DNA of 64,000 nt from Escherichia coli. GTDB lineage: Bacteria > Pseudomonadota > Gammaproteobacteria > Enterobacterales > Enterobacteriaceae. Location of the stretch: the NCBI RefSeq assembly GCF_030013595.1, contig NZ_CP122768.1; one strand, 5' to 3'. Shown piece by piece: positions 363-20,692 of the stretch (positions are counted from its first letter, which is position 1; each line of letters opens with the position of its first letter). The translations under genes were made by a program, and so were the position numbers. Under the pieces are notes generated by a model that was not told where the DNA came from, ran no database searches, and saw only the letters and a list, made by a program, of their open reading frames with translations.

Positions 363-1379
363 ATGAACGCTAAGATAATTGCCTCGCTGGCCTTCACCAG
401 CATGTTCAGCCTCAGCACCCTGTTAAGCCCGGCGCACGCCGAAGAGCAGGAAAAGGCGCTGAATTTCGGCATTATTTCAACGGAATCACAGCAAAACCTG
501 AAACCGCAATGGACGCCGTTCTTACAGGATATGGAGAAGAAGCTGGGCGTGAAGGTCAACGCCTTCTTTGCCCCGGACTACGCGGGCATTATCCAGGGAA
601 TGCGCTTCAACAAAGTGGATATCGCCTGGTACGGCAATCTGTCAGCGATGGAAGCGGTGGATCGCGCCAATGGCCAGGTCTTCGCCCAGACGGTCGCGGC
701 GGATGGATCGCCGGGTTACTGGAGCGTGTTGATCGTCAACAAAGATAGTCCGATCAACAACCTGAACGATCTGCTGGCGAAGCGGAAAGATCTCACCTTC
801 GGCAATGGCGATCCTAACTCTACCTCCGGCTTCCTCGTCCCTGGTTACTACGTCTTCGCCAAAAACAATATCTCCGCCAGCGACTTCAAGCGCACCGTCA
901 ACGCCGGGCATGAAACCAACGCGCTGGCCGTCGCCAACAAGCAGGTGGATGTGGCGACCAACAACACCGAAAACCTCGACAAGCTGAAAACCTCCGCGCC
1001 AGAGAAGCTGAAAGAACTGAAGGTGATCTGGAAGTCGCCGCTGATCCCAGGCGATCCGATCGTCTGGCGCAAGAATCTTTCCGAAACCACCAAAGACAAG
1101 ATCTACGACTTCTTTATGAATTACGGCAAAACGCCGGAAGAGAAAGCGGTGCTGGAACGCCTAGGCTGGGCCCCGTTCCGCGCCTCCAGCGACCTGCAAC
1201 TGGTGCCGATTCGCCAGCTCGCACTGTTTAAAGAGATGCAGGGCGTGAAAAGCAATAAAGGGCTGAATGAGCAGGACAAGCTGGCAAAAACCACCGAGAT
1301 TCAGGCGCAGCTGGATGACCTGGACCGCCTGAACAACGCGTTAAGCGCGATGAGTTCGGTGAGTAAAGCGGTGCAGTAA
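363..1379 (+). CDS. phnD: Phosphonate ABC transporter periplasmic binding protein
   Basis: 338 aa ORF with N-terminal signal peptide; position and length fit PhnD. Confidence 0.92.
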   Translation: MNAKIIASLAFTSMFSLSTLLSPAHAEEQEKALNFGIISTESQQNLKPQWTPFLQDMEKKLGVKVNAFFAPDYAGIIQGMRFNKVDIAWYGNLSAMEAVDRANGQVFAQTVAADGSPGYWSVLIVNKDSPINNLNDLLAKRKDLTFGNGDPNSTSGFLVPGYYVFAKNNISASDFKRTVNAGHETNALAVANKQVDVATNNTENLDKLKTSAPEKLKELKVIWKSPLIPGDPIVWRKNLSETTKDKIYDFFMNYGKTPEEKAVLERLGWAPFRASSDLQLVPIRQLALFKEMQGVKSNKGLNEQDKLAKTTEIQAQLDDLDRLNNALSAMSSVSKAVQ

Positions 1380-1439: not shown

Positions 1440-2219
1440 ATGCAAACCATCACCATCGCCCCACCCAAGCGCAGCTGGTTCTCGCTTCTGAGCTGGGCCA
1501 TTGTTCTCGCCGTGCTGGTCGTCTCGTGGCAGGGCGCGGAAATGGCCCCGCTCACGCTGATTAAAGACGGCGGCAACATGGCAACCTTCGCCGCCGACTT
1601 CTTCCCGCCCGATTTCAGCCAGTGGCAGGATTACCTCACCGAAATGGCCGTCACGCTGCAAATCGCCGTCTGGGGCACCGCGCTGGCGGTGGTTCTCTCC
1701 ATCCCCTTCGGTCTGATGAGCGCCGAAAACCTAGTGCCGTGGTGGGTTTACCAGCCCGTACGCCGCCTGATGGACGCCTGCCGCGCCATTAACGAAATGG
1801 TCTTCGCCATGCTGTTCGTGGTCGCCGTCGGCCTTGGCCCGTTCGCTGGCGTGCTGGCGCTGTTTATCCACACCACCGGCGTGCTCTCCAAACTGCTTTC
1901 CGAAGCGGTAGAAGCAATTGAACCCGGCCCGGTGGAAGGTATTCGCGCCACCGGTGCCAACAAGCTCGAAGAGATCCTCTACGGCGTGCTGCCGCAGGTG
2001 ATGCCGCTGCTGATCTCCTACTCCCTCTATCGCTTCGAATCCAACGTCCGTTCGGCCACCGTTGTTGGCATGGTCGGCGCTGGCGGGATCGGCGTCACCC
2101 TGTGGGAAGCGATTCGCGGTTTCCAGTTCCAGCAAACCTGCGCCCTGATGGTGCTGATTATCGTCACGGTCAGCCTGCTGGATTTCCTCTCTCAACGGTT
2201 GCGTAAGCACTTTATCTGA
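1440..2219 (+). CDS. phnE: Phosphonate ABC transporter permease, intact reading frame
   Basis: Uninterrupted 259 aa ORF with multiple hydrophobic segments; synteny between phnD and phnF. Confidence 0.88.
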
Positions 2220-2239: not shown

Positions 2240-2965
2240 ATGCACTTGTCTACACATCCGACCAGCTACCCAACACGCTATCAGGAGATAGCCGCAAAAC
2301 TTGAGCAGGAGCTTCGTCAACACTACCGCTGCGGCGACTATCTTCCCGCCGAGCAGCAACTGGCGGCGCGCTTTGAGGTGAACCGCCACACCCTGCGCCG
2401 CGCCATCGACCAACTGGTGGAAAAAGGCTGGGTACAGCGCCGTCAGGGCGTCGGCGTGCTGGTGCTGATGCGCCCGTTCGATTACCCGCTCAACGCCCAG
2501 GCGCGTTTTAGCCAGAACCTGCTGGATCAGGGCAGCCATCCCACCAGCGAAAAACTGCTGTCTGTGCTGCGCCCGGCCTCCGGTCACGTCGCTGACGCGC
2601 TGGGGATAACCGAGGGCGAGAACGTTATCCACCTGCGCACCCTGCGCCGGGTCAACGGCGTCGCGCTCTGTTTAATCGACCACTACTTTGCGGACCTCAC
2701 CCTCTGGCCGACGCTGCAACGCTTCGACAGCGGCTCGCTGCACGATTTTCTGCGCGAGCAAACGGGGATTGCGCTGCGCCGCAGCCAGACGCGGATCAGC
2801 GCCCGCCGCGCCCAGGCCAAAGAGTGCCAGCATCTTGAAATCCCGAATATGTCGCCGCTGCTGTGCGTGCGCACCCTTAACCACCGTGACGGTGAAAGCA
2901 GCCCGGCGGAGTACTCCGTCAGCCTGACGCGCGCCGACATGATTGAATTCACTATGGAGCACTGA
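2240..2965 (+). CDS. phnF: GntR-family transcriptional regulator of the phn operon
   Basis: 241 aa from MHLSTHP; N-terminal GntR-type HTH region; ORF track offers an alternative start at 2231. Confidence 0.9.
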   Translation: MHLSTHPTSYPTRYQEIAAKLEQELRQHYRCGDYLPAEQQLAARFEVNRHTLRRAIDQLVEKGWVQRRQGVGVLVLMRPFDYPLNAQARFSQNLLDQGSHPTSEKLLSVLRPASGHVADALGITEGENVIHLRTLRRVNGVALCLIDHYFADLTLWPTLQRFDSGSLHDFLREQTGIALRRSQTRISARRAQAKECQHLEIPNMSPLLCVRTLNHRDGESSPAEYSVSLTRADMIEFTMEH

Positions 2966-3418
2966 ATGCACGCAGATACCGCGACCCGCCAGCACTGGAT
3001 GTCCATACTGGCACACAGCCAACCGGCTGAACTGGCAGCCCGCCTGAAGGCGCTGAACATCACCGCCGACTATGAGGTGATCCGCGCCGCTGAAACCGGC
3101 CTGGTGCAGATTCAGGCGCGGATGGGTGGCACCGGCGAACGCTTTTTTGCTGGCGACGCCACGCTCACCCGCGCCGCCGTACGCCTGACTGACGGCACGC
3201 TCGGCTACAGCTGGGTGCTGGGGCGCGACAAACAGCACGCCGAACGCTGCGCGCTGATCGACGCGCTGATGCAGCAAACCCGCCATTTTCAAAACTTATC
3301 AGAAACTCTTATTGCCCCGCTGAACGCTGACCGTATGGCACGCATTGCCGCACGCCAGGCCGAAGTAAACGCCAGCCGGGTCGACTTCTTTACGATGGTT
3401 CGCGGAGATAACGCATGA
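2966..3418 (+). CDS. phnG: C-P lyase core complex subunit PhnG
   Basis: 150 aa ORF; start immediately follows the phnF stop; synteny. Confidence 0.9.
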
Positions 3419-3999
3419 CCCTGGAAACCGCTTTTATGCTTCCCGTGCAGGATGCCCAGCACAGTTTTCGTCGCCTGTTAAAGGCCATGAGCGAGCCGGG
3501 CGTGATTGTCGCCCTGCATCAGCTCAAGCGCGGCTGGCAGCCGCTGAATATCGCCACCACCAGCGTGCTGCTGACGCTGGCCGATAACGACACGCCGGTG
3601 TGGCTTTCTGCGCCATTAAGTAACGATATCGTCAGCCAGAGCCTGCGTTTTCATACCAACGCGCCGCTGGTCAATCAGCCGGAACAGGCGACCTTCGCGG
3701 TAACGGATGAGGCGATTTCCAGCGAACAGCTCAACGCTCTTTCCAGCGGCACCGCTGTTGCGCCGGAAGCGGGCGCGACGCTGATTTTACAGGTCGTCAG
3801 CCTGAGCGGCGGGCGCATGCTGCGCCTTACTGGCGCGGGTATTGCCGAAGAACGAATGATCGCTCCGCAGCTGCCGGAGTGCATTCTGCACGAACTCACC
3901 GAGCGCCCGCACCCGTTCCCGCTCGGCATCGACCTGATCCTGACCTGCGGCGAGCGCCTGCTGGCTATCCCGCGAACCACTCATGTGGAGGTGTGCTGA
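3415..3999 (+). CDS. phnH: C-P lyase core complex subunit PhnH
   Basis: 194 aa ORF overlapping phnG by 4 nt; synteny. Confidence 0.9.
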
Positions 4000-5063
4000 T
4001 GTACGTTGCCGTGAAAGGGGGCGAGAAGGCGATCGACGCCGCCCACGCCCTGCAAGAGAGCCAACGCCGGGGCGATACCGATTTGCCCGAACTGAGCGTC
4101 GCCCAGATTGAACAACAGCTTAACCTCGCGGTAGATCGCGTGATGACTGAAGGCGGCATTGCCGACCGCGAACTGGCGGCGCTGGCGCTGAAACAGGCCA
4201 GCGGCGATAACGTCGAAGCAATTTTCCTGCTGCGCGCCTACCGTACCACGCTGGCTAAGCTTGCGGTAAGCGAGCCGCTCGACACCACGGAGATGCGTCT
4301 CGAACGGCGTATTTCAGCGGTTTATAAAGATATTCCCGGCGGCCAGCTGCTTGGCCCAACCTACGACTACACCCATCGCCTGCTCGATTTCACCCTGCTG
4401 GCAAACGGCGAAGCGCCGACGCTGACCACCGCCGACAGCGCACAACAGCCGTCGCCGCACGTTTTCAGCCTGCTGGCGCGTCAGGGGCTGGCGAAGTTTG
4501 AGGAGGATAGCGGCGCACAGCCGGATGACATCACCCGCACGCCGCCGGTTTACCCCTGCTCACGCTCCTCCCGCCTGCAACAATTAATGCGCGGGGACGA
4601 AGGCTATTTGCTGGCGCTGGCCTACTCCACCCAGCGTGGTTACGGACGCAATCACCCGTTCGCGGGCGAGATCCGCAGCGGATATATCGACGTGTCGATT
4701 GTGCCGGAAGAGCTGGGATTTGCGGTGAACGTCGGCGAACTGCTGATGACCGAATGTGAAATGGTCAACGGTTTTATCGACCCGCCGGATGAGCCGCCGC
4801 ACTTCACGCGCGGCTACGGGCTGGTGTTCGGCATGAGCGAGCGCAAAGCGATGGCGATGGCGCTGGTTGACCGTGCGTTGCAGGCTCCGGAGTACGGCGA
4901 GCACGCGACAGGCCCGGCGCAGGATGAAGAGTTCGTGCTGGCGCATGCCGACAACGTCGAAGCCGCAGGCTTTGTCTCGCACCTTAAACTCCCGCACTAC
5001 GTCGATTTCCAGGCCGAACTGGAGCTACTCAAACGTCTGCAACAGGAGCTGAACCATGGCTAA
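3999..5063 (+). CDS. phnI: C-P lyase core complex subunit PhnI
   Basis: 354 aa from [10 protein letters not shown]; ATG at 3999-4001 overlaps the phnH stop; ORF track extends upstream to 3879 in the same frame. Confidence 0.9.
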   Translation: MYVAVKGGEKAIDAAHALQESQRRGDTDLPELSVAQIEQQLNLAVDRVMTEGGIADRELAALALKQASGDNVEAIFLLRAYRTTLAKLAVSEPLDTTEMRLERRISAVYKDIPGGQLLGPTYDYTHRLLDFTLLANGEAPTLTTADSAQQPSPHVFSLLARQGLAKFEEDSGAQPDDITRTPPVYPCSRSSRLQQLMRGDEGYLLALAYSTQRGYGRNHPFAGEIRSGYIDVSIVPEELGFAVNVGELLMTECEMVNGFIDPPDEPPHFTRGYGLVFGMSERKAMAMALVDRALQAPEYGEHATGPAQDEEFVLAHADNVEAAGFVSHLKLPHYVDFQAELELLKRLQQELNHG

Positions 5064-5901
5064 TCTGAGCGGCTACAACTTTGCCTACCTCGACGAGCAG
5101 ACCAAACGCATGATCCGCCGCGCCATCTTAAAAGCGGTGGCGATCCCCGGTTATCAGGTGCCGTTTGGCGGGCGCGAGATGCCGATGCCGTACGGCTGGG
5201 GAACTGGTGGTATCCAGCTTACCGCCAGCGTGATTGGCGAAAGCGACGTGTTGAAGGTGATTGACCAGGGTGCGGATGACACCACCAACGCCGTGTCGAT
5301 TCGCAACTTCTTTAAGCGCGTGACCGGGGTAAACACCACTGAACGTACGGACGATGCGACGCTTATCCAGACGCGTCACCGCATCCCCGAAACGCCGCTG
5401 ACCGAAGATCAGATCATTATCTTCCAGGTGCCAATCCCGGAACCGCTGCGCTTTATCGAGCCACGCGAAACGGAGACCCGCACTATGCACGCGCTGGAGG
5501 AGTACGGCGTGATGCAGGTGAAACTGTATGAAGATATCGCCCGCTTCGGTCATATCGCCACCACCTATGCTTATCCGGTGAAGGTGAACGGGCGCTACGT
5601 GATGGACCCGTCGCCGATCCCGAAATTCGATAACCCGAAAATGGACATGATGCCCGCCCTGCAGCTGTTCGGCGCAGGGCGCGAGAAGCGCATCTATGCG
5701 GTGCCGCCGTTTACCCGCGTGGAAAGCCTCGATTTCGACGATCACCCGTTCACCGTTCAGCAGTGGAATGAGCCATGCGCCATCTGCGGATCGACCCACA
5801 GCTATCTTGATGAAGTGGTGCTGGATGACGCCGGAAACCGCATGTTTGTCTGCTCCGATACCGATTATTGCCGCCAACAGAGCGAGGCGAAAAGCCAATG
5901 A
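5056..5901 (+). CDS. phnJ: C-P lyase catalytic subunit PhnJ (radical SAM-like, Cys-rich C-terminus)
   Basis: 281 aa ORF; C-terminal cysteine cluster CAICGS...CSDTDYC; overlaps phnI end. Confidence 0.92.
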   Translation: MANLSGYNFAYLDEQTKRMIRRAILKAVAIPGYQVPFGGREMPMPYGWGTGGIQLTASVIGESDVLKVIDQGADDTTNAVSIRNFFKRVTGVNTTERTDDATLIQTRHRIPETPLTEDQIIIFQVPIPEPLRFIEPRETETRTMHALEEYGVMQVKLYEDIARFGHIATTYAYPVKVNGRYVMDPSPIPKFDNPKMDMMPALQLFGAGREKRIYAVPPFTRVESLDFDDHPFTVQQWNEPCAICGSTHSYLDEVVLDDAGNRMFVCSDTDYCRQQSEAKSQ

Positions 5902-6656
5902 ATCAACCGTTACTTTCGGTCAACAACCTGACCCACCTTTACGCGCCGGGCAAAGGCTTTAGCGATGTCTCTTTTGATTTATGGCCGGGGGAAGTGCTAG
6001 GCATCGTCGGGGAATCCGGCTCCGGGAAGACCACGCTGCTGAAATCAATCTCCGCGCGCCTGACGCCGCAGCAGGGGGAAATTCACTATGAAAACCGTTC
6101 CCTCTATGGCATGAGCGAGGCCGACCGCCGTCGCCTGCTGCGCACCGAATGGGGCGTGGTGCATCAGCATCCGCTCGACGGCCTGCGCCGCCAGGTGTCG
6201 GCAGGCGGCAATATCGGCGAGCGGCTGATGGCGACCGGGGCGCGTCATTACGGCGACATCCGCGCCACCGCGCAGAAGTGGCTGGAAGAGGTGGAGATTC
6301 CCGCCAACCGGATCGACGACCTGCCGACCACCTTTTCCGGCGGCATGCAGCAACGTTTGCAGATTGCCCGCAACCTGGTGACGCATCCGAAGCTGGTGTT
6401 TATGGACGAGCCAACCGGCGGGCTGGATGTATCGGTACAGGCGCGCCTGCTCGATCTGCTGCGCGGTCTGGTGGTGGAGCTGAATCTGGCGGTGGTGATT
6501 GTCACCCACGATCTGGGCGTCGCCCGCCTGCTGGCGGACCGTTTGCTGGTGATGAAACAGGGGCAAGTGGTGGAGAGTGGGTTAACCGACCGCGTGCTCG
6601 ACGACCCTCACCATCCATATACCCAGCTGCTGGTGTCATCGGTTTTGCAGAATTGA
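5898..6656 (+). CDS. phnK: C-P lyase system ATP-binding protein PhnK
   Basis: 252 aa from [11 protein letters not shown]; Walker [10 protein letters not shown]; ATGA start/stop overlap with phnJ. Confidence 0.9.
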
Positions 6657-6662
6657 GCCAGT

Positions 6663-6748
6663 GCCGGATACGGCGTAAACGCCTTATCCGGCCGACAAAT
6701 GCGCTCCCCGTAGGTCGGATAAGACGCGTCAGCGTCGCATCCGACACC
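6663..6748. repeat. REP/BIME-type palindromic units in the phnK-phnL intergenic spacer
   Basis: Two imperfect palindromes of the gccggata...ttatccggc and ggataagacgcg...cgtcgcatcc type. Confidence 0.7.
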
Positions 6749-6766
6749 CGAACCACGAGGCGAAAA

Positions 6767-7447
6767 ATGATTAACGTACAAAACGTCAGTAAAACCTTCA
6801 TCCTGCACCAGCAAAACGGCGTGCGCCTGCACGTCTTACAACGTGCCTCGCTCACCGTCAACGCAGGCGAATGCGTGGTGCTCCACGGCCACTCCGGCAG
6901 CGGCAAATCAACTCTGCTGCGCTCGCTGTACGCCAACTATCTGCCCGATGAAGGGCAAATCCAGATCAAACATGGTGACGAGTGGGTAGACCTGGTCACT
7001 GCACCAGCGCGCAAAGTGGTGGAGATCCGCAAAACCACCATCGGCTGGGTGAGCCAGTTTCTGCGCGTCATCCCGCGTATTTCGGCACTGGAAGTGGTGA
7101 TGCAGCCTCTGCTCGATACCGGCGTACCGCGTGAAGCCTGCGCCGCTAAAGCCGCCCGATTACTGACGCGCCTGAACGTGCCTGAACGCCTGTGGCACCT
7201 GGCACCATCGACCTTCTCCGGTGGCGAACAGCAGCGTGTCAACATCGCCCGTGGCTTTATCGTCGACTACCCCATTCTGCTGCTCGACGAACCTACCGCC
7301 TCGCTGGACGCTAAAAACAGCGCCGCCGTAGTGGAACTGATCCGCGAAGCCAAAGCCCGCGGCGCGGCCATCGTCGGTATCTTCCATGACGAAACCGTGC
7401 GCGAGCAAGTCGCCGACCGCCTGCACCCAATGGGAGTCTCTTCATGA
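6767..7447 (+). CDS. phnL: C-P lyase system ATP-binding protein PhnL
   Basis: 226 aa from MINVQNVSK; Walker [10 protein letters not shown] and ABC signature FSGGEQQRV; the 432 aa track ORF 6149..7447 is an arginine-rich frame artifact upstream. Confidence 0.9.
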
Positions 7448-8580
7448 TTATCAATAACGTCAAACTGGTGCTGGAAAACGAGGTGGTACACGGTTCTCTG
7501 GAGATGCAGGACGGCGAAATCCGCGCCTTTGCCGAAAGCCAGAGTCACCTGTCAGAAGCAATGGACGGCGAAGGCGGCTGGCTGCTACCGGGGCTGATTG
7601 AGCTGCATACCGATAATCTGGATAAATTCTTCACCCCGCGTCCAAAAGTGGACTGGCCCGCCCACTCGGCAATGAGTAGCCACGACGCGCTGATGGTGGC
7701 GAGCGGCATCACCACCGTGCTGGACGCGGTGGCGATTGGCGACGTGCGCGACGGCGGCGATCGGCTGGAGAATCTGGAGAAGATGATCAACGCCATCGAA
7801 GAGACGCAGAAACGCGGCGTCAACCGCGCCGAGCACCGTCTGCATCTGCGCTGCGAACTGCCGCATCACACCACGCTGCCGCTGTTTGAAAAACTGGTGC
7901 AGCGCGAACCGGTGACGCTGGTGTCGCTGATGGATCACTCGCCGGGCCAGCGCCAGTTCGCCAATCGCGAGAAGTATCGCGAATATTATCAGGGCAAATA
8001 CTCGCTCACCGATGTGCAGATGCAGCAGTACGAAGAGGAACAGCTGGCGCTTGCCGCACGCTGGTCACAGCCTAATCGCGAAACTATCGCCGCAATGTGC
8101 CGCGCGCGACACATTGCGCTCGCCAGCCACGATGACGCCACGCACGCGCACGTTGCCGAATCTCACCAGCTTGGCAGCGTGATCGCCGAATTTCCCACCA
8201 CGTTCGAAGCGGCAGAAGCCTCGCGCAAGCATGGCATGAACGTGCTGATGGGCGCGCCGAATATCGTGCGCGGCGGTTCGCACTCCGGCAACGTGGCGGC
8301 CAGTGAACTGGCGCAGCTTGGCCTGCTGGATATCCTCTCTTCCGACTACTACCCCGCCAGCCTGCTCGATGCGGCATTTCGCGTCGCCGATGACGAGAGC
8401 AACCGCTTTACGCTGCCGCAGGCGGTGAAGCTGGTGACTAAAAATCCGGCGCAGGCGCTTAATCTTCAGGATCGCGGAGTGATTGGCGAGGGCAAACGCG
8501 CCGACCTGGTGCTGGCGCATCGCAAGGGCAACCACATTCATATCGACCACGTCTGGCGTCAGGGTAAAAGGGTGTTCTGA
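7444..8580 (+). CDS. phnM: Amidohydrolase-family PhnM (ribosyl-triphosphate phosphonate diphosphohydrolase)
   Basis: 378 aa ORF overlapping phnL by 4 nt; synteny. Confidence 0.9.
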
Positions 8581-9137
8581 TGACGGGAAAACTGATTTGG
8601 TTAATGGGTCCGTCCGGCTCCGGGAAAGACAGCCTGCTGGCGGAACTCCGCCAGCGGGAACAAACCCAGCTACTGGTAGCGCATCGCTACATCACGCGTG
8701 ATGCCAGCGCCGGAAGTGAAAATCATATCGCCTTAAGCGAGCGGGAGTTTTTTACCCGCGCGGGGCAAAATCTGTTGGCCTTGAGCTGGCATGCTAATGG
8801 TTTGTATTACGGTGTCGGCATTGAGATCGACCTCTGGCTGCACGCCGGATTCGACGTCGTGGTTAACGGCTCACGCGCCCACCTGCCGCAGGCGCGGGCG
8901 CGCTATCAATCGGCGCTGCTGCCCATTTGCTTACAGGTTTCGCCGGAGATCCTGCGCCAGCGCCTGGAAAACCGTGGCCGTGAAAACGCCAGTGAAATTA
9001 ACGCCCGGCTGGCGCGCGCCGCCCGCTATACTCCTCAGGATTGCCATACGCTCAATAATGACGGCAGCCTGCGCCAGTCGGTCGACACGCTGCTGACGCT
9101 GATTCATCAGAAGGAGAAACACCATGCCTGCTTGTGA
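8580..9137 (+). CDS. phnN: Ribose 1,5-bisphosphate phosphokinase PhnN
   Basis: 185 aa ORF with P-loop GPSGSGKDS; synteny. Confidence 0.9.
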
Positions 9138-9558
9138 GCTTCGCCCGGCCACGCAGTACGATACCGACGCAGTTTACGCGCTGATTTGTGAGCTAAAACA
9201 GGCGGAGTTTGACCACCATGCGTTTCGCGTGGGGTTTAACGCCAATCTGCGCGATCCGAACATGCGCTACCATCTGGCGCTGCTGGATGGCGAAGTTGTC
9301 GGCATGATCGGCCTGCATTTGCAGTTTCATCTGCATCATGTCAACTGGATCGGCGAAATTCAGGAACTGGTGGTGATGCCGCAGGCGCGCGGTCTGAACG
9401 TCGGCAGCAAATTACTGGCATGGGCAGAAGAAGAAGCCCGCCAGGCCGGGGCCGAAATGACCGAGCTTTCCACCAACGTGAAGCGCCACGACGCGCACCG
9501 TTTTTACCTGCGTGAAGGCTACGAGCAGAGCCACTTCCGCTTCACCAAGGCGCTGTAA
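9124..9558 (+). CDS. phnO: Aminoalkylphosphonate N-acetyltransferase (GNAT family) PhnO
   Basis: 144 aa ORF; synteny and length. Confidence 0.88.
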
Positions 9559-9559
9559 C

Positions 9560-10318
9560 ATGAGCCTGACCCTCACACTTACTGGCACTGGCGGCGCACA
9601 GGGCGTTCCCGCATGGGGCTGTGAGTGCGTGGCCTGCGTCAGAGCGCGGCGCTCACCGCAGTATCGCCGCCAGCCATGCAGCGGCGTCGTGAAGTTTAAC
9701 GACGCGATCACCCTGATCGACGCCGGGCTGCACGATCTCGCCGATCGCTGGTCGCCCGGATCGTTCCAGCAGTTTTTGCTGACGCACTACCATATGGATC
9801 ACGTGCAGGGGCTGTTTCCGCTGCGCTGGGGCGTGGGCGATTCGATCCCGATCTACGGCCCGCCGGATGAACAGGGCTGCGACGATCTGTTTAAACATCC
9901 GGGCCAGCTTGATTTCAGCCACACGATGGAACCGTTTGTGGTGTTTGATTTACAGGGGTTACAGGTCACGCCCCTGCCGCTCAACCACTCAAAACTGACC
10001 TTCGGTTATCTGCTGGAAACGGCACATAGCCGGGTGGCGTGGCTGTCTGACACCGCAGGCCTACCGGAAAAAACGCTGAAATTTTTACGCAATAATCAAC
10101 CGCAGGTGATGGTGATTGATTGCAGCCACCCACCGCGCGAGGATGCACCGCGTAATCACTGTGATTTAAATACCGTGCTTGCGCTGAATGAAGTTATCCG
10201 CTCGCCGCGCGTGGTTCTGACCCATATCAGCCATCAGTTTGATGCGTGGCTGATGGAGAACTTACTGCCGTCAGGGTTTGAGGCGGGGTTTGATGGGATG
10301 GAGATTGGGGTGGCGTGA
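9560..10318 (+). CDS. phnP: Metallo-beta-lactamase-fold phosphodiesterase PhnP
   Basis: 252 aa from [12 protein letters not shown]; HYHMDH metal-binding motif; ATG 2 nt after the phnO stop. Confidence 0.9.
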
Positions 10319-10743: not shown

Positions 10744-11061
10744 TCAATTTCTCCGCTGCTCTATTGCCGTAATCGCCTCCACGCGTTGTTGATGACGACC
10801 GCCTTCGTACTGCGCGCCCAGCCACGCATCCACAATCATTTTTGCCAGTTCGAGGCCAACCACTCGTGAACCAAAAGCCAGTGCAACTTCACTGGCGTAA
10901 TGCGGATAATCAGTGCGCTCTGACGGCCTGGTTTCTTTATCAATCCCCTCACTCATTGACCATGAATAAAAGGCTGGCACAGCAACGCGGAATCCTGCGG
11001 TGCCAGCGACATGACCGCCCATTGCTCCGGTACGTTTTTTAATAAAAAACACCGGTTGCAT
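10744..11061 (-). pseudogene. rpiB: Ribose-5-phosphate isomerase B remnant: RpiB-like N- and C-terminal segments with the central catalytic region missing
   Basis: 105 aa ORF with SERTDYPHYAS motif and RpiB/LacAB-like C-terminus but about 45 residues shorter than RpiB; residues upstream of the motif are in a foreign frame. Confidence 0.6.
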
Positions 11062-13801: not shown

Positions 13802-14833
13802 ATGGAAAGTACGCCGAAAAAAGCTCCTCGCAGTAAATTCCCTGCTCTGTTAGTGGTTGCGTTGGCGCTGGTTGCCCTTGTTTTCGTTATCTGGCGCGTA
13901 GACAGTGCGCCATCAACTAATGACGCTTACGCGTCAGCAGATACCATTGATGTGGTGCCGGAAGTCAGCGGTCGCATTGTAGAACTGGCGGTCACCGACA
14001 ACCAGGCGGTGAAACAGGGCGATTTGCTGTTCCGCATCGACCCGCGCCCGTACGAAGCCAATCTGGCGAAAGCCGAAGCCTCCCTCGCGGCGCTGGATAA
14101 GCAAATTATGCTCACCCAGCGTAGCGTTGACGCACAACAGTTTGGTGCCGACTCGGTTAATGCCACGGTAGAAAAAGCCCGTGCCGCTGCAAAACAGGCC
14201 AGCGATACATTACGCCGCACCGAGCCATTACTGAAAGAAGGTTTTGTCTCAGCGGAAGACGTTGACCGTGCAAGAACGGCGCAGCGCGCCGCAGAAGCCG
14301 ATCTTAACGCCGTTTTATTACAGGCGCAGTCAGCCGCCAGCGCCGTCAGCGGCGTGGATGCATTAGTTGCCCAGCGTGCGGCAGTGGAAGCGGATATTGC
14401 GTTGACCAAACTGCATCTGGAAATGGCGACCGTTCGCGCGCCGTTTGATGGCCGGGTCATTTCCCTCAAAACCTCCGTCGGGCAATTTGCTTCTGCCATG
14501 CGCCCTATTTTTACCCTAATCGACACTCGTCACTGGTACGTGATCGCCAACTTCCGCGAAACCGATCTGAAAAATATTCGCTCAGGTACACCCGCAACGA
14601 TTCGCCTGATGAGCGACAGCGGCAAAACCTTCGAGGGTAAAGTGGATTCGATTGGCTACGGCGTGCTACCGGATGACGGCGGCCTGGTGCTGGGCGGCCT
14701 GCCGAAAGTGTCTCGTTCTATTAACTGGGTCCGCGTTGCCCAGCGTTTTCCGGTCAAAATCATGGTCGATAAACCTGACCCGGAAATGTTCCGCATCGGC
14801 GCTTCGGCAGTCGCTAATCTTGAGCCGCAATAA
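13802..14833 (+). CDS. mdtN: HlyD-family membrane fusion (periplasmic adaptor) protein MdtN
   Basis: 343 aa ORF; N-terminal membrane anchor and coiled-coil region; synteny. Confidence 0.88.
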   Translation: MESTPKKAPRSKFPALLVVALALVALVFVIWRVDSAPSTNDAYASADTIDVVPEVSGRIVELAVTDNQAVKQGDLLFRIDPRPYEANLAKAEASLAALDKQIMLTQRSVDAQQFGADSVNATVEKARAAAKQASDTLRRTEPLLKEGFVSAEDVDRARTAQRAAEADLNAVLLQAQSAASAVSGVDALVAQRAAVEADIALTKLHLEMATVRAPFDGRVISLKTSVGQFASAMRPIFTLIDTRHWYVIANFRETDLKNIRSGTPATIRLMSDSGKTFEGKVDSIGYGVLPDDGGLVLGGLPKVSRSINWVRVAQRFPVKIMVDKPDPEMFRIGASAVANLEPQ

Positions 14834-16884
14834 TGAGCGCGCTCAACTCCCTGCCATTACCGGTGGTCAGGCTGCTGGCGTTCTTTCATGAAGAGTTAAG
14901 CGAGCGGCGACCAGGCCGCGTGCCGCAGACCGTGCAACTCTGGGTAGGCTGCCTGCTGGTGATTCTGATCTCGATGACTTTTGAGATCCCTTTTGTGGCG
15001 TTATCACTGGCAGTGCTGTTTTACGGTATTCAGTCGAACGCGTTTTACACCAAATTTGTCGCGATCTTGTTTGTGGTCGCCACGATGCTGGAGATCGGCA
15101 GCCTGTTTTTGATCTACAAATGGTCATACGGCGAACCGTTGATCCGATTGATCATCGCCGGGCCGATCCTGATGGGCTGCATGTTTTTGATGCGCACCCA
15201 TCGGCTGGGACTGGTCTTTTTCGCTGTCGCCATTGTCGCCATTTACGGGCAAACCTTCCCCGCCATGCTCGACTATCCGGAAGTGGTCGTGCGCTTAACC
15301 CTGTGGTGTATCGTTGTCGGCCTCTACCCGACGTTATTGATGACGTTAATCGGCGTGCTGTGGTTTCCCAGCCGCGCTATCACGCAGATGCATCAGGCGC
15401 TTAATGATCGGCTTGATGATGCCATTAGCCACCTGACGAACAGCCTCACACCGCTACCCGAAACGTGGATTGAAAGAGAGGCGCTGGCGCTGCAAAAACT
15501 CAATGTCTTTTGCCTCGCGGACGATGCCAACTGGCGAACTCAGAGCGCATGGTGGCAAAGCTGCGTGGCAACGGTAACCTACATTTACTCGACGCTGAAT
15601 CGCTACGCTCCCACCTCTTTTGCTGATTCTCAGGCAATTATTGAATTTCGGCAAAAATTAGCCTCAGAAATCAACAAACTGCAGCATGCCATTGCCGAAG
15701 GTCAGTGCTGGCAAAGCGACTGGCGGATCAGTGAAAGTGAAGCGATGGCGGCACGGGAATGTAACCTGGAGAATATCTGCCAGACGTTATTGCAACTGGG
15801 TCAGATGGACCCGAATACGCCGCCAACGCCCGCCACCAAACCGCCATCAATGGTCGCCGACGCTTTTACCAATCCAGACTATATGCGCTACGCGGTAAAA
15901 ACGCTGCTCGCCTGTTTGATCTGTTACACCTTCTACAGCGGCGTGGACTGGGAAGGCATTCACACCTGTATGCTGACCTGCGTGATCGTCGCTAACCCAA
16001 ATGTTGGTTCGTCGTATCAGAAAATGGCGCTGCGTTTTGGCGGTGCCTTCTGCGGTGCAATTCTGGCGCTGTTATTCACGTTACTGGTCATGCCCTGGCT
16101 GGACAATATTGTCGAATTGCTATTTGTGCTGGCACCGATTTTCCTGTTGGGCGCATGGATTGCCACCAGCTCTGAACGCTCTTCTTATATCGGCACACAG
16201 ATGGTGGTCACCTTCGCGCTCGCCACGCTCGAAAACGTTTTTGGCCCGGTGTACGACCTGGTGGAAATTCGCGATCGCGCCCTGGGTATCATCATTGGTA
16301 CCGTGGTGTCCGCGGTGATTTACACCTTTGTCTGGCCTGAAAGTGAAGCGCGCACACTGCCCCAAAAACTGGCTGGCGCGCTGGGTATGTTGAGTAAAGT
16401 AATGCGGATCCCACGCCAGCAGGAAGTCACAGCTCTGCGCACTTATTTGCAAATTCGTATAGGTCTGCATGCGGCGTTTAATGCCTGTGAAGAGATGTGC
16501 CAACGCGTGGCGTTGGAGCGTCAACTGGACAGCGAAGAACGCGCTTTACTGATTGAACGTTCGCAAACGGTTATTCGTCAGGGCCGCGATATTCTTCACG
16601 CCTGGGATGCAACCTGGAACTCGGCGCAGGCGCTGGATAACGCACTACAGCCGGACAGAGCAGGTCAGTTTGCCGACGCACTGGAGAAATACGCCGCCGG
16701 TCTGGCAACCGCACTCAGCCGTTCTCCTCAAATAACGCTTGAAGAAACACCCGCCTCGCAGGCCATCCTGCCCACCTTATTAAAACAGGAGCAACACGTC
16801 TGCCAGCTTTTCGCCCGCTTGCCAGACTGGACAGCCCCGGCATTAACGCCCGCCACGGAACAGGTACAAGGAGCCACGCAATGA
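14833..16884 (+). CDS. mdtO: FUSC-family inner-membrane efflux protein MdtO
   Basis: 683 aa ORF; TAATG overlap with mdtN; multiple transmembrane segments. Confidence 0.88.
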   Translation: MSALNSLPLPVVRLLAFFHEELSERRPGRVPQTVQLWVGCLLVILISMTFEIPFVALSLAVLFYGIQSNAFYTKFVAILFVVATMLEIGSLFLIYKWSYGEPLIRLIIAGPILMGCMFLMRTHRLGLVFFAVAIVAIYGQTFPAMLDYPEVVVRLTLWCIVVGLYPTLLMTLIGVLWFPSRAITQMHQALNDRLDDAISHLTNSLTPLPETWIEREALALQKLNVFCLADDANWRTQSAWWQSCVATVTYIYSTLNRYAPTSFADSQAIIEFRQKLASEINKLQHAIAEGQCWQSDWRISESEAMAARECNLENICQTLLQLGQMDPNTPPTPATKPPSMVADAFTNPDYMRYAVKTLLACLICYTFYSGVDWEGIHTCMLTCVIVANPNVGSSYQKMALRFGGAFCGAILALLFTLLVMPWLDNIVELLFVLAPIFLLGAWIATSSERSSYIGTQMVVTFALATLENVFGPVYDLVEIRDRALGIIIGTVVSAVIYTFVWPESEARTLPQKLAGALGMLSKVMRIPRQQEVTALRTYLQIRIGLHAAFNACEEMCQRVALERQLDSEERALLIERSQTVIRQGRDILHAWDATWNSAQALDNALQPDRAGQFADALEKYAAGLATALSRSPQITLEETPASQAILPTLLKQEQHVCQLFARLPDWTAPALTPATEQVQGATQ

Positions 16885-18347
16885 TCAATCGTCAACTTTC
16901 ACGCCTGCTGTTGTGCAGCATTCTCGGCAGCACGACGCTGATTTCCGGCTGTGCCCTGGTACGTAAGGATTCTGCGCCTCATCAACAGCTCAAACCGGAA
17001 CAAATCAAACTGGCCGATGATATTCATCTTGCCAGCTCCGGTTGGCCGCAGGCGCAGTGGTGGAAACAACTCAATGACCCGCAGTTGGATGCACTGGTCC
17101 AACAGACGCTAAGTGGTTCACACACCCTCGCCGAAGCGAAACTGCGGGAAGAAAAAGCGCAGTCGCAGGCCGATTTGTTAGATACCGGTTCACAGTTGCA
17201 GGTGGCAGCGTTAGGGATGCTTAACCGCCAACGCGTCTCGGCGAACGGCTTTTTAAGCCCTTATGCGATGGATGCGCCCGCACTGGGGATGGACGGGCCG
17301 TACTATACGGAAGCCACAGTCGGTTTGTTTGCCGGACTGGATCTTGATTTGTGGGGTGTGCATCGCTCAGCGGTTGCCGCCGCCATTGGCGCGCATAATG
17401 CCGCGCTGGCAGAAACCGCAGCAGTAGAGCTATCGCTGACCACGGGCGTAGCGCAGCTTTATTACAGTATGCAGGCCAGCTATCAGATGCTCGATCTGTT
17501 AGAACAAACTCGCGATGTGATTGATTACGCGGTAAAAGCGCACCAGAGTAAAGTGGCGCACGGTCTGGAAGCGCAAGTGCCTTTCCACGGCGCGCGGGCA
17601 CAGATTCTGGCGGTCGATAAACAAATTGCTGCCGTTAAAGGGCAAATCACCGAAACGCGAGAATCTCTGCGCGCATTGATTGGCGCGGGAGCCAGCGATA
17701 TGCCGGAGATCAAACCGGTGGCATTACCGCAAGTCCAGACCGGTATTCCGGCGACACTCTCTTATGAGTTGCTCGCCAGACGCCCGGATCTGCAAGCGAT
17801 GCGCTGGTATGTTCAGGCGTCATTAGATCAGGTGGATTCCGCGCGGGCGCTGTTCTATCCGAGCTTTGATATCAAAGCGTTTTTCGGCCTGGATTCTATC
17901 CACCTGGATACCTTATTCAAAAAAACCAGTCGCCAGTTTAACTTTATCCCGGGTCTGAAATTGCCGCTGTTTGACGGTGGACGGTTGAATGCCAATCTCG
18001 AAGGCACTCGCGCCGCCAGCAACATGATGATTGAACGTTACAACCAGTCAGTGCTGAATGCGGTGCGCGACGTTGCCGTCAACGGCACGCGTCTGCAAAC
18101 GCTCAACGACGAGCGAGAGATGCAGGCTGAACGCGTGGAAGCAACGCGCTTCACCCAGCGCGCTGCCGAGGCCGCCTATCAACGCGGCTTAACCAGCCGC
18201 TTACAGGCCACTGAAGCCCGGTTGCCAGTACTTGCCGAAGAGATGTCATTACTGATGCTGGACAGCCGCCGGGTGATCCAAAGCATTCAGTTGATGAAAT
18301 CGCTGGGCGGCGGGTATCAGGCGGCTCCCGTCGTCGAGAAAAAATAA
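16881..18347 (+). CDS. mdtP: Outer-membrane efflux lipoprotein (NodT/OMF family) MdtP
   Basis: 488 aa ORF; lipoprotein signal LISGCA; ATGA overlap with mdtO. Confidence 0.88.
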   Translation: MINRQLSRLLLCSILGSTTLISGCALVRKDSAPHQQLKPEQIKLADDIHLASSGWPQAQWWKQLNDPQLDALVQQTLSGSHTLAEAKLREEKAQSQADLLDTGSQLQVAALGMLNRQRVSANGFLSPYAMDAPALGMDGPYYTEATVGLFAGLDLDLWGVHRSAVAAAIGAHNAALAETAAVELSLTTGVAQLYYSMQASYQMLDLLEQTRDVIDYAVKAHQSKVAHGLEAQVPFHGARAQILAVDKQIAAVKGQITETRESLRALIGAGASDMPEIKPVALPQVQTGIPATLSYELLARRPDLQAMRWYVQASLDQVDSARALFYPSFDIKAFFGLDSIHLDTLFKKTSRQFNFIPGLKLPLFDGGRLNANLEGTRAASNMMIERYNQSVLNAVRDVAVNGTRLQTLNDEREMQAERVEATRFTQRAAEAAYQRGLTSRLQATEARLPVLAEEMSLLMLDSRRVIQSIQLMKSLGGGYQAAPVVEKK

Positions 18348-18544: not shown

Positions 18545-20692
18545 ATGAAAAAAGTCGTCACGGTTTGCCCCTATTGCGCATCAGGTTGCAAAATCAACCT
18601 GGTCGTCGATAACGGCAAAATCGTCCGGGCGGAGGCAGCGCAGGGGAAAACCAACCAGGGTACCCTGTGTCTGAAGGGTTATTATGGCTGGGACTTCATT
18701 AACGATACCCAGATCCTGACCCCGCGCCTGAAAACCCCCATGATCCGTCGCCAGCGTGGCGGCAAACTCGAACCTGTTTCCTGGGATGAGGCACTGAATT
18801 ACGTTGCCGAGCGCCTGAGCGCCATCAAAGAGAAGTACGGTCCGGATGCCATCCAGACGACCGGCTCCTCGCGTGGTACGGGTAACGAAACCAACTATGT
18901 AATGCAAAAATTTGCGCGCGCCGTTATTGGTACCAATAACGTTGACTGCTGCGCTCGTGTCTGACACGGCCCATCGGTTGCAGGTCTGCACCAATCGGTC
19001 GGTAATGGCGCAATGAGCAATGCTATTAACGAAATTGATAATACCGATTTAGTGTTCGTTTTCGGGTACAACCCGGCGGATTCCCACCCAATCGTGGCGA
19101 ATCACGTAATTAACGCTAAACGTAACGGGGCGAAAATTATCGTCTGCGATCCGCGCAAAATTGAAACCGCGCGCATTGCGGACATGCACATTGCACTGAA
19201 AAACGGCTCAAACATCGCGCTGTTGAATGCGATGGGTCATGTCATTATTGAAGAAAACCTGTACGACAAAGCGTTCGTCGCTTCCCGTACAGAAGGCTTT
19301 GAAGAGTATCGTAAAATCGTTGAAGGCTACACGCCGGAGTCGGTTGAAGATATCACCGGCGTCAGCGCCAGTGAGATTCGTCAGGCGGCACGGATGTATG
19401 CCCAGGCGAAAAGCGCCGCCATCCTGTGGGGCATGGGTGTAACCCAGTTCTACCAGGGTGTGGAAACCGTGCGTTCTCTGACCAGCCTCGCGATGCTGAC
19501 TGGTAACCTCGGTAAGCCGCATGCGGGTGTAAACCCGGTTCGTGGTCAGAACAACGTGCAGGGTGCCTGCGATATGGGCGCGCTGCCGGATACGTATCCG
19601 GGCTATCAGTACGTGAAAGATCCGGCTAACCGCGAGAAATTCGCCAAAGCCTGGGGCGTGGAAAGCCTGCCAGCGCATACCGGCTATCGCATCAGCGAGC
19701 TGCCGCACCGCGCAGCGCATGGCGAAGTGCGTGCCGCGTACATTATGGGCGAAGATCCGCTGCAAACTGACGCGGAGCTGTCGGCAGTACGTAAAGCCTT
19801 CGAAGATCTGGAACTGGTCATCGTTCAGGACATCTTTATGACCAAAACCGCGTCGGCGGCGGATGTTATTTTACCGTCAACGTCGTGGGGCGAGCATGAA
19901 GGCGTGTTTACTGCGGCTGACCGTGGCTTCCAGCGTTTCTTCAAAGCGGTTGAACCGAAGTGGGATCTGAAAACGGACTGGCAAATCATCAGTGAAATCG
20001 CCACCCGTATGGGTTATCCGATGCACTACAACAACACCCAGGAGATCTGGGATGAGTTGCGTCATCTGTGCCCGGATTTCTACGGTGCGACTTACGAGAA
20101 AATGGGCGAACTGGGCTTCATTCAGTGGCCTTGCCGCGATACTTCAGATGCCGATCAGGGGACTTCTTATCTGTTTAAAGAGAAGTTTGATACCCCGAAC
20201 GGTCTGGCGCAGTTCTTCACCTGCGACTGGGTAGCGCCAATCGACAAACTCACCGACGAGTATCCGATGGTACTGTCAACGGTGCGTGAAGTTGGTCACT
20301 ACTCTTGCCGTTCGATGACCGGTAACTGTGCGGCACTGGCAGCGCTGGCTGATGAACCTGGCTACGCACAAATCAATACCGAAGACGCCAAACGTCTGGG
20401 TATTGAAGATGAGGCATTGGTTTGGGTGCACTCGCGTAAAGGCAAAATTATCACCCGTGCGCAGGTCAGCGATCGTCCGAACAAAGGGGCGATTTATATG
20501 ACCTACCAGTGGTGGATTGGTGCCTGTAACGAGCTGGTTACCGAAAACTTAAGCCCGATTACGAAAACGCCGGAATACAAATACTGCGCCGTGCGCGTCG
20601 AGCCGATCGCCGATCAGCGCGCCGCCGAGCAGTACGTGATTGACGAGTACAACAAGTTGAAAACTCGCCTGCGCGAAGCGGCACTGGCGTAA
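18545..20692 (+). CDS. fdhF: Formate dehydrogenase H, selenocysteine-containing molybdoenzyme; in-frame TGA at 18962-18964 read as Sec
   Basis: Track ORFs 18545..18964 and 19013..20692 are in the same frame, separated only by TGA after VDCCARV; 715 aa total; N-terminal Fe-S cysteine motif CPYCASGC. Confidence 0.93.
18962..19008 (+). promoter_or_regulatory. SECIS selenocysteine-insertion stem-loop immediately 3' of the fdhF UGA
   Basis: Position directly after the in-frame UGA; exact structure boundaries not folded here. Confidence 0.7.

Follow-up and report, generated by a model that had tools for sequence, protein, structure and literature searches.

Along the phn operon of Escherichia coli, the start codon of one gene repeatedly overlaps, or lies close to, the stop codon of the gene before it. 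This raises the question of whether these start codons are the true ones and whether such junctions link the translation of neighbouring cistrons. The locus was analysed within a 64,000-nucleotide segment of an E. coli chromosome (the window), which carries phnC'DEFGHIJKLMNOP, mdtNOP and an accessory pair made of pnuC and a NadR-like gene. The phn genes follow the order phnC to phnP and include those of the PhnGHIJK core subunits. phnC is truncated by the start of the window and the remaining 13 of 13 phn genes are complete and intact. The locus was present in 5,380 of 5,426 genomes.

Gene junctions in the window

Positions 3000-9000 of the window are 100% identical to the annotated E. coli sequence NZ_CM149870.1, and the RefSeq CDS coordinates, once transferred onto the window, gave a clean translation in all cases. 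Junction distances were calculated from the RefSeq gene ends by subtracting the previous stop, and a further 1, from the next start, and are reported in Table 1 with the associated Shine-Dalgarno (SD) motifs. Within phnF-phnK and within phnL-phnP, the ATG of each gene lies at most 14 nt upstream, or at most 2 nt downstream, of the final base of the preceding stop codon, and the tight junctions form two series, one of five (phnF to phnK) and one of four (phnL to phnP). The preliminary description had reported that phnG/H, H/I, I/J, J/K, L/M, M/N, N/O and O/P all overlap or abut by 0-14 nt. The RefSeq ends agree with this list for the first seven junctions. By contrast, phnO and phnP are separated by one spacer base and thus neither overlap nor abut, and phnF/G, which qualifies with no spacer at all, had been left out. 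The ATGA of phnJ/K and the A shared by the phnH TGA and the phnI ATG were found exactly as described, and the ATGA or TAATG signatures noted at mdtN/O, mdtO/P and the pnuC/NadR-like pair are present at these junctions. It should be noted that the range given for the whole set, 3999-5928, spans the H/I, I/J and J/K junctions only.

Table 1. Junctions between consecutive genes and SD motifs in the window (duplex energies in kcal/mol)
Feature	Position	Strand	Distance (nt)	Remarks
phnC/D			+24	
phnD/E			+60	
phnE/F			+20	
phnF/G	2963-2968	+	0	TGAATG, phnF TGA then phnG ATG
phnG SD-like	2955-2960	+		TGGAGC
phnG/H	3415-3418	+	-4	ATGA
phnH SD-like	3403-3408	+		CGGAGA, within phnG
phnH/I	3997-4001	+	-1	TGATG
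phnI SD	3986-3993	+		TGGAGGTG, strong, -10.6, within phnH
phnI/J	5056-5063	+	-8	overlap sequence ATGGCTAA
phnJ SD-like	5043-5049	+		CAGGAGC
phnJ/K	5898-5901	+	-4	ATGA
phnK SD-like	inside 5879-5888	+		GAGG
phnK/L spacer	6657-6766	+	+110	sole long gap from phnF to phnP
phnK/L REP-like palindromes (two)	6663-6692, 6714-6745	+		
phnL SD	6756-6761	+		CGAGGC, 3' of the REP palindromes; for de novo phnL initiation
phnL/M	7444-7447	+	-4	ATGA
phnM SD-like	7431-7437	+		TGGGAGT
phnM/N	8578-8582	+	-1	TGATG
phnN SD				AAAGGGTG, weak to moderate
phnN/O	9124-9137	+	-14	phnO ATG at 9124, phnN TGA at 9135-9137
phnO SD	9110-9117	+		GAAGGAGA
phnO/P	9556-9562	+	+1	TAA-C-ATG
phnP SD				CAAGGCGC, -3.2, weakest among tight phn junctions
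mdtN/O	14831-14835	+	-1	TAATG
mdtO SD				essentially absent, -1.9
mdtO/P	16881-16884	+	-4	ATGA
mdtP SD	16867-16874	+		CAAGGAGC
pnuC/NadR-like (AAA_28)	51361-51364	-	-4	ATGA

The pnuC product matches the Pfam family NMN_transporter (E = 1.3e-48) and the NadR-like protein matches AAA_28 (E = 2.6e-33). Over residues 5-328, the latter also matches the NadR-family structures 9x6f, 8x7f, 1lw7 and 6gye (E = 7.5e-15 against 1LW7); with 334 amino acids, it is shorter than the 365-residue 1LW7 chain. By its domains, the pair is thus a PnuC transporter gene followed by a gene for an NMN adenylyltransferase/ribosylnicotinamide kinase, the arrangement of a nicotinamide riboside uptake pair. The same tight pattern was also observed elsewhere in the window, at nrfB/C, nrfC/D, nrfE/F, nrfF/G and yjcH/actP. 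An unusual divergence of the phn region itself was considered and rejected, as uvrA, another gene of the window, likewise shares less than 99% identity with nearly every E. coli genome; the rare lineage is therefore that of the whole strain and the phn locus is not special in this respect.

Initiation codons at the tight junctions

Possible starts were scored over the interval between the upstream stop and +120 nt, taking every in-frame ATG, GTG and TTG codon into account. An SD-like motif was found 5-9 nt upstream of the start, inside the preceding gene, at eight of the nine tight phn junctions. Predicted pairing with the anti-SD reached -5.5 kcal/mol or lower at 8/9 tight junctions, a level attained by 9.7% of positions inside CDSs (binomial, 6.6e-8). 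This ribosome-binding-site scoring, which had been proposed as a check on the start choices, ranked the overlapping ATG best for every phn gene but phnP. In phnG, phnH, phnJ, phnM, phnN and phnO, moreover, no possible start lies 5' of the overlapping ATG. Candidate in-frame starts exist further upstream in phnI, phnK, phnL and phnP, and the SD of all of these was essentially nil (+1.9 to -2.4 kcal/mol). The sole alternative that outscored an annotated ATG was a GTG located at +69 nt in phnP, better by 1.5 kcal/mol (-4.7 versus -3.2 kcal/mol); it was rejected because the four further E. coli strains in the comparison all retain the annotated phnP ATG.

Comparison of five E. coli strains that diverge by about 5% revealed variable sites at 12 of 261 positions in the junction windows versus 700 of 6952 in the operon overall (P = 0.0015), and no change touched an SD core, a start or a stop codon. 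The phnF/G junction is the same in the five divergent strains, and the spacer base of phnO/P, a C here, is a T in other strains.

Some of the overlaps might be annotation artefacts, the true starts lying elsewhere and the genes not overlapping, as gene finders favour long ORFs; the upstream candidates in phnI, phnK, phnL and phnP would fit this explanation, as would the weak SD of phnP and the slightly better GTG 69 nt downstream. However, the upstream candidates are essentially devoid of an SD, and the conserved N-terminal motifs of the proteins fall at the annotated methionine or a few residues from it in nine taxa, the PhnI motif M(G)YVAVKGG starting at the junction ATG in eight of the nine. 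Furthermore, the N-terminal amine of PhnI is resolved in a 2 Å-class cryo-EM structure of the complex expressed from native phn DNA, and divergent strains show no variation in the starts or SDs, while independent RefSeq annotations (five strains) agree on the starts. An artefactual origin of the overlaps is, in our opinion, extremely improbable. The junction ATGs of the phn operon are thus well supported as real initiation codons by SD scoring, N-terminal conservation, strain invariance and the PhnI structure, as the preliminary description had proposed for its start choices. Support is indirect for the predicted starts of phnP and mdtO, which draw on conservation and ORF limits. The value of these results is mainly one of quality control: with correct overlapping starts, the window's gene models for phn, mdt and the pnuC/NadR-like pair are trustworthy.

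Probable translational coupling and its alternatives

An ATGA at a TGA stop codon takes just one extra base, so that the tetranucleotide by itself says little; its significance depends on the true starts being located there, which they are. Of the 13 phn junctions, eight fall within -8 to +6 nt, and among E. coli unidirectional pairs overall 24% do so (P = 0.004). P becomes about 0.09 if approximately 39% of operon-internal pairs are tight, a proportion that is a rough guess. Within the window, 9/12 phn pairs are tight versus 9/26 of the other same-strand pairs. The number of tight phn junctions is thus only moderately unusual. Regarding their conservation, overlaps at G/H, H/I, I/J and J/K account for 32 of 36 junctions in the window and eight other taxa (Beta-, Alpha- and Gammaproteobacteria, Bacillota, Deinococcota, Actinomycetota and Halobacteria), the remaining four being gaps of 1-14 nt, and GGAG-type motifs are found within the upstream gene at the G-H-I-J-K junctions of the other taxa. 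Over 1,695 species, median distances of -1 for PhnG-H and H-I, -4 for I-J, J-K and L-M and -1 for M-N have been reported, with PhnK-PhnL looser everywhere at a median of +9 (PMC10666635).

These are the normal junctions of the E. coli phn (C-P lyase) operon, at which we consider that neighbouring genes are probably linked by termination-reinitiation. Coupling is a reasonable reading of the junction geometry, of which it would be the most likely consequence. RNA-seq identified one phnC-P transcript under phosphate starvation (PMC3734233), and promoter-like or terminator-like sites that would split the phn operon internally showed no excess over shuffled controls. Once a ribosome has terminated at the end of one cistron of this Pho-induced 14-gene transcript, the adjoining SD and start codon would keep or recapture it, and it would then reinitiate on the next phn cistron. 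The output of neighbouring cistrons would thereby be tied, which would suit an equimolar PhnG2H2I2J2 core with PhnK and PhnL. Reliance on reinitiation would be greatest at the junctions with a poor SD (phnP, mdtO), and the junctions with a strong SD (phnI, phnO and phnK) probably combine reinitiation and de novo initiation.

The preliminary description had extended coupling through the phn operon, which is overstated. The 110 nt of phnK/L and the 20-60 nt of C/D, D/E and E/F interrupt the chain, as approximately 20-38 nt suffice to largely abolish reinitiation. With the chain broken at the REP-containing phnK/L spacer and upstream of phnF, initiation would have to be independent at these places. 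The Phn(GHIJ)2K complex assembles upon expression of native phnGHIJK DNA. Tight junctions also separate products that do not form a complex, since M/N, N/O and O/P join separate enzymes and F/G joins a repressor and a lyase subunit; stoichiometry cannot therefore be the whole reason for the tight spacing. A phnO deletion is reported to be polar on phnP, an effect that could be of transcriptional origin. A full-text literature search for experiments on coupling at phn junctions returned none, its sole match being an annotation remark in Nodularia.

An alternative that we regard as unlikely is that the overlaps arose as a side effect of genome compaction and of mutational drift in stop and start positions, each gene relying mainly on independent de novo initiation with little coupling. 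The competent internal SDs at canonical spacing found at 8/9 tight phn junctions would permit it, and the predicted accessibility of the translation initiation regions (TIRs) of phnG, phnM, phnO and phnJ exceeds the 80th percentile of coding positions, whereas the TIRs of phnH, phnI, phnK, phnN and phnP are no more accessible than coding sequence is on average. In E. coli, roughly one unidirectional pair in four is equally tight, unrelated products are joined as tightly (PhnF/PhnG, PhnN/PhnO), and bioBF is an ATGA overlap without coupling; yet four of five tested E. coli pairs proved to be coupled. Independent initiation also has to account for phnP and mdtO, which need to be expressed despite poor SDs, and for the tightness of G/H/I/J/K, which extends to other phyla and to an archaeon, with K/L consistently looser, a distribution that argues for selection on specific junctions.

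Coupling might also operate mainly by RNA unfolding, the upstream ribosome melting a structure so that a fresh 30S subunit initiates, without reinitiation by the same ribosome. This is one of the two live models in the review literature, and the TIRs of phnH, phnI, phnK, phnN and phnP, which are not unusually accessible, are compatible with it. At phnM/N, an 11-bp hairpin (~8552-8588, -11.8 kcal/mol, z = -2.0) pairs the phnN AUG with the phnM UGA, but it is marginal, as 8 of 200 shuffled sequences fold equally well, and folding at the tight junctions is no more stable than in shuffled controls (z from -1.4 to +1.6). As the steep distance dependence observed in E. coli favours reinitiation, we hold unfolding to be very unlikely as the main mechanism, and termination-reinitiation remains the preferred reading.

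A bolder extension of termination-reinitiation would make the two tight runs translational relays, with the REP-bearing K/L spacer as the single re-entry point; taken as a whole, this reading is decidedly unlikely. Were it true, ribosomes loaded once at phnF and once at phnL would pass through five or six cistrons, and K/L would set the ratio of the core complex and the repressor PhnF to the accessory enzymes PhnL/M/N/O/P. The cross-domain G-H-I-J-K overlaps would then mean that the C-P lyase core assembles co-translationally and in a set order, for which the pairing of the PhnG C-terminus with the PhnI N-terminus would be one example.

Comparison with known systems

The spacing of the phn junctions is ordinary and already catalogued, and nothing in it is new; the original papers on the phn sequence probably remarked on the overlaps. 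A published table for K-12 (Huber et al. 2023, PMC10666635) gives the same distances for F/G (0), G/H (-4), H/I (-1), I/J (-8), L/M (-4), M/N (-1), N/O (-14) and O/P (+1), and its values for mdtN/O (-1) and mdtO/P (-4) match those of the window. The junctions are thus alike in two strains whose DNA diverges by approximately 5%. By contrast, phnE is intact in the window (259 amino acids) and is described as cryptic in K-12 owing to an 8-bp insertion (PMC6469041). Huber et al. (2023) predicted termination-reinitiation coupling for co-directional adjacent pairs at -8 to +10 nt, an interval that includes F/G, G/H, H/I, I/J, J/K, L/M, M/N, O/P, mdtN/O, mdtO/P and pnuC/NadR-like; phnN/O (-14) lies marginally outside and phnK/L (+110) is excluded. 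The phn core pairs were flagged as subunits of heteromeric complexes in the same study (PMC10666635), and the phn junctions fit the documented rule that subunits of such complexes tend to have overlapping genes. Complex subunits are enriched 4.5-fold among tight pairs, and reinitiation falls steeply with distance (PMC6728339, PMC10666635).

Coupling has been demonstrated in four of five native E. coli pairs with a -4 overlap, the tested overlapping pairs including hyfH-hyfI, astD-astB, ydbH-ynbE and menD-menH (PMC6728339, PMC10666635). Like the phn genes, these are co-directional with short overlaps, often with the SD in the upstream gene, and several encode subunits of one complex. Their dependence on upstream translation was measured, whereas for phn, mdt and pnuC/NadR-like it is a prediction. 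The bioB-bioF pair of E. coli, the uncoupled one of the five, is an ATGA-type overlap with a weak SD, similar in strength to that of phnO/P or mdtN/O, and translation of bioF is fully independent of bioB (Huber et al. 2019, PMC6728339); overlap alone is therefore no proof of coupling. C-P lyase clusters of other prokaryotes are similarly tight from G-H to J-K and at L-M and M-N, in agreement with the eight-taxon sample, and E. coli differs from them by a K-L spacer enlarged to 110 nt through inserted REP palindromes. Finally, the phn operon has serial tight junctions (five and four) where each of hyfH-hyfI, astD-astB, ydbH-ynbE and menD-menH has a single pair. With its two runs, varied SD strength and built-in 110-nt break, it would, were coupling measured, offer a convenient natural system in which to study serial coupling, one that extends known biology and adds no new kind of system.

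Junction geometry of the phn operon and other loci

Gene coordinates were obtained by mapping the RefSeq annotation onto the window, and distances were read from the junction sequences. Translation showed that the listed phn, mdt and pnuC/NadR-like genes are intact open reading frames with start and stop codons at the tabulated ends.

Genes (RefSeq transfer) and their junctions with the next gene (next start minus previous stop minus 1; negative values, overlap)
Gene	Coordinates	Strand	Distance to next gene (nt)	Junction motif
phnC	cut by window start	+	24	
phnD	363-1379	+	60	
phnE	1440-2219	+	20	
phnF	2240-2965	+	0	TGAATG
phnG	2966-3418	+	-4	ATGA
phnH	3415-3999	+	-1	TGATG
phnI	3999-5063	+	-8	
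phnJ	5056-5901	+	-4	ATGA
phnK	5898-6656	+	+110	
phnL	6767-7447	+	-4	ATGA
phnM	7444-8580	+	-1	TGATG
phnN	8580-9137	+	-14	
phnO	9124-9558	+	+1	TAA-C-ATG
phnP	9560-10318	+		
mdtN	13802-14833	+	-1	TAATG
mdtO	14833-16884	+	-4	ATGA
mdtP	16881-18347	+		
pnuC	51361-51918	-		ATGA
NadR-like AAA_28 protein	50360-51364	-		

The preliminary description listed overlapping or abutting phn junctions, and this holds for all of them except phnO/P, where a one-base spacer (C or T across other strains) separates the genes. Both of its worked examples (ATGA at phnJ/K; the phnI ATG sharing a base with the phnH TGA) are exact, as are the motifs reported for mdtN/O, mdtO/P and the pnuC/NadR-like pair. The phnF/G junction, omitted from that list, belongs to the same tight series. 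The pattern recurs at nrfB/C, nrfC/D, nrfE/F, nrfF/G and yjcH/actP, and 18 of the 38 same-strand neighbour pairs of the window are tight. Eleven of the 14 phn genes stop at TGA (TAA only in phnD, phnI and phnO), a codon required or favoured by ATGA and TGATG overlaps yet also found in the non-overlapping phnC, E, F, K and P.

The window is part of an E. coli chromosome; between positions 3000 and 9000 it matches NZ_CM149870.1 at 100% identity, and this region was found in 5,380 of 5,426 complete E. coli genomes. The lineage is rare: at phn or uvrA, only 3-7 of the 5,426 reach 99% identity or more. From NZ_CM149870.1, the closest record, the window differs by a few SNPs and by an indel near 54721, immediately ahead of qorA, a gene that this record annotates as frameshifted. 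Here phnE is an intact 259-aa frame, and K-12 phnE is cryptic through an 8-bp insertion (PMC6469041).

The label "NadR-like" is justified, as Pfam detects AAA_28 in this protein (and NMN_transporter in the pnuC product) and it aligns with NadR-family structures over almost its entire length. This accessory pair, located between alr and tyrB, is matched over its full length in only 867 of the 5,426 E. coli genomes; in the remaining genomes with a match, less than 80% of the query was covered, and the query also took in short flanks such as the alr end. Elsewhere, a 105-aa RpiB/LacA/LacB-family frame (10744-11061, minus strand) lies between yjdP and yjcS; compared with the K-12 map (rpiB of 149 aa, then the als operon), the strain may have a truncated rpiB and no alsRBACEK. 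The nrfE gene (24178-25896, minus strand) has a RefSeq CTG start 19 nt downstream of nrfD, with an upstream Shine-Dalgarno (SD)-like motif of -7.1 kcal/mol, and fdhF (18545-20692) contains one in-frame TGA, expected as the formate dehydrogenase H selenocysteine codon.

Shine-Dalgarno scoring and conservation of the tight junctions

An ATGA motif by itself is weak evidence, because a TGA stop needs one specific extra base. What matters more is whether translation begins at these codons. The 16S rRNA 3' end was scored against the -20 to -4 region of all starts, with 45,673 internal coding positions of the window as background. At 8 of the 9 tight phn junctions the score was -5.5 kcal/mol or lower (top 9.7% of background; binomial 6.6e-8), with paired cores 5-9 nt from the ATG. 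Scores were strong for phnI (-10.6), phnO (-8.8) and phnK (-8.2 kcal/mol), the weak exceptions being phnP (-3.2) and mdtO (-1.9 kcal/mol). When all in-frame ATG, GTG and TTG codons between the upstream stop and +120 nt were considered, the annotated ATG scored best for every phn gene but phnP, and it is the 5'-most possible start in phnG, H, J, M, N and O. The start choices, which the overlaps had been said to support, are well supported; the TGATG start of phnI is further supported by a published structure in which the PhnI N-terminal amine is resolved. The number of tight phn junctions is less remarkable than this result: 8 of 13 fall within -8 to +6, a range that holds 24% of the full set of unidirectional pairs in E. 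coli (P = 0.004), but P is only about 0.09 if some 39% of operon-internal pairs are tight, a figure that is our rough guess.

Exactly the same annotated junction geometry is seen in four E. coli genomes with 94.6-96.7% identity across the operon. In the E. coli O157:H7 strain Z1814, the phnO annotation carries a frameshift and phnM is 9 nt shorter; the geometry is the same regardless. In a five-sequence E. coli alignment, 10.1% of columns vary overall, compared to 12 of 261 in the -20 to +8 stretches around the nine tight junctions (Fisher P = 0.0015, for a small sample of related, non-independent sequences), and the changes in these stretches spare every SD core, start and stop. Annotated plasmid C-P lyase clusters were also compared from eight taxa (Variovorax, Mesobacillus, Thermus, the archaeon Halorientalis, Arthrobacter, Marinobacter, Paracoccus and a divergent Proteus plasmid). 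Together with the window, G/H, H/I, I/J and J/K overlap in 32 of 36 cases, the other four gaps being 1, 2, 4 and 14 nt; from the junction ATG onward, PhnI reads M(G)YVAVKGG in 8 of the 9 taxa, and GGAG-type motifs lie within the upstream gene in nearly all cases.

Extent and mechanism of probable translational coupling

The phn operon is one transcript under phosphate starvation (PMC3734233), and expression of native phnGHIJK DNA yields an assembled Phn(GHIJ)2K complex. The junction geometry, the SD motifs embedded at the junctions and the conservation of both are established here, and translational coupling is likely at these genes: ribosomes terminating at the upstream stop would reinitiate at the adjacent start, tying the outputs of neighbouring cistrons together. 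The weak-SD junctions (phnP, mdtO) would be expected to depend most on reinitiation, and the strong-SD ones (phnI, phnO, phnK) probably also initiate de novo. We found no published experiment testing coupling at any phn junction; a phnO::kan deletion is reported to be polar on phnP, an effect that could be transcriptional.

Coupling had been proposed to run through the operon. This is ruled out, since the C/D, D/E, E/F and K/L spacers are long enough to break reinitiation, leaving at most two runs, F-K and L-P. The sole long gap within phnF-phnP, the phnK-phnL spacer (6657-6766), contains two REP-like palindromes (6663-6692 and 6714-6745). As the PhnK-L median over 1,695 genomes is +9 (n = 206; PMC10666635), this spacer looks like an E. 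coli lineage-specific insertion uncoupling phnL from phnK. Tight junctions also join products that are not complex partners (F/G, M/N, N/O, O/P), so stoichiometric assembly cannot be their sole reason.

Coupling could alternatively operate through unfolding of RNA structure by the upstream ribosome, a model with little support here: folds around the tight junctions are no stabler than shuffled sequence (z = -1.4 to +1.6), except at phnM/N, where a marginal hairpin (-11.8 kcal/mol, z = -2.0) pairs the phnN AUG. In this hairpin (8552-8588, about 11 bp), the phnM stop and phnN start are base-paired and an SD-like AAAGGG stays in the loop; no other junction gives any hint of structural masking. 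At the start regions of phnH, I, K, N and P, accessibility only matches the coding-sequence average, whereas the start regions of the spaced phnD, E and L rank within the top 8%, a contrast that fits, without proving, some dependence on the upstream ribosome. The phnD-phnE spacer, between the binding-protein and permease genes, contains a perfect 9-bp GC-rich hairpin (1395-1415, CCCTCTCCC-ACA-GGGAGAGGG; local fold z = -2.3), a possible element for mRNA stability or processing.

Comparison with catalogued and experimentally tested gene pairs

For K-12, Huber et al. 2023 (PMC10666635) list F/G 0, G/H -4, H/I -1, I/J -8, L/M -4, M/N -1, N/O -14, O/P +1, mdtN/O -1 and mdtO/P -4, the same distances as in the window, and flag the core phn pairs and both mdt pairs as complex subunits. 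Their 1,695-genome medians are -1 for PhnG-H (n = 233) and H-I (n = 230), -4 for I-J (n = 204), J-K (n = 218) and L-M (n = 133), -1 for M-N (n = 109) and -13 for PnuC-NadR (n = 119). Of five native E. coli ATGA pairs studied by the same group, four were strictly or partially coupled and bioBF was uncoupled; the group also found a steep dependence of reinitiation on distance (efficiency dropping by 5-70% at +2 nt and 80-100% at +38 nt) and a 4.5-fold enrichment of complex subunits among tight pairs. Since the phn pairs are catalogued and the coupling work is published, both the observation and its interpretation are established general knowledge: the phenomenon is ordinary, and exactly these gene pairs have already been catalogued.
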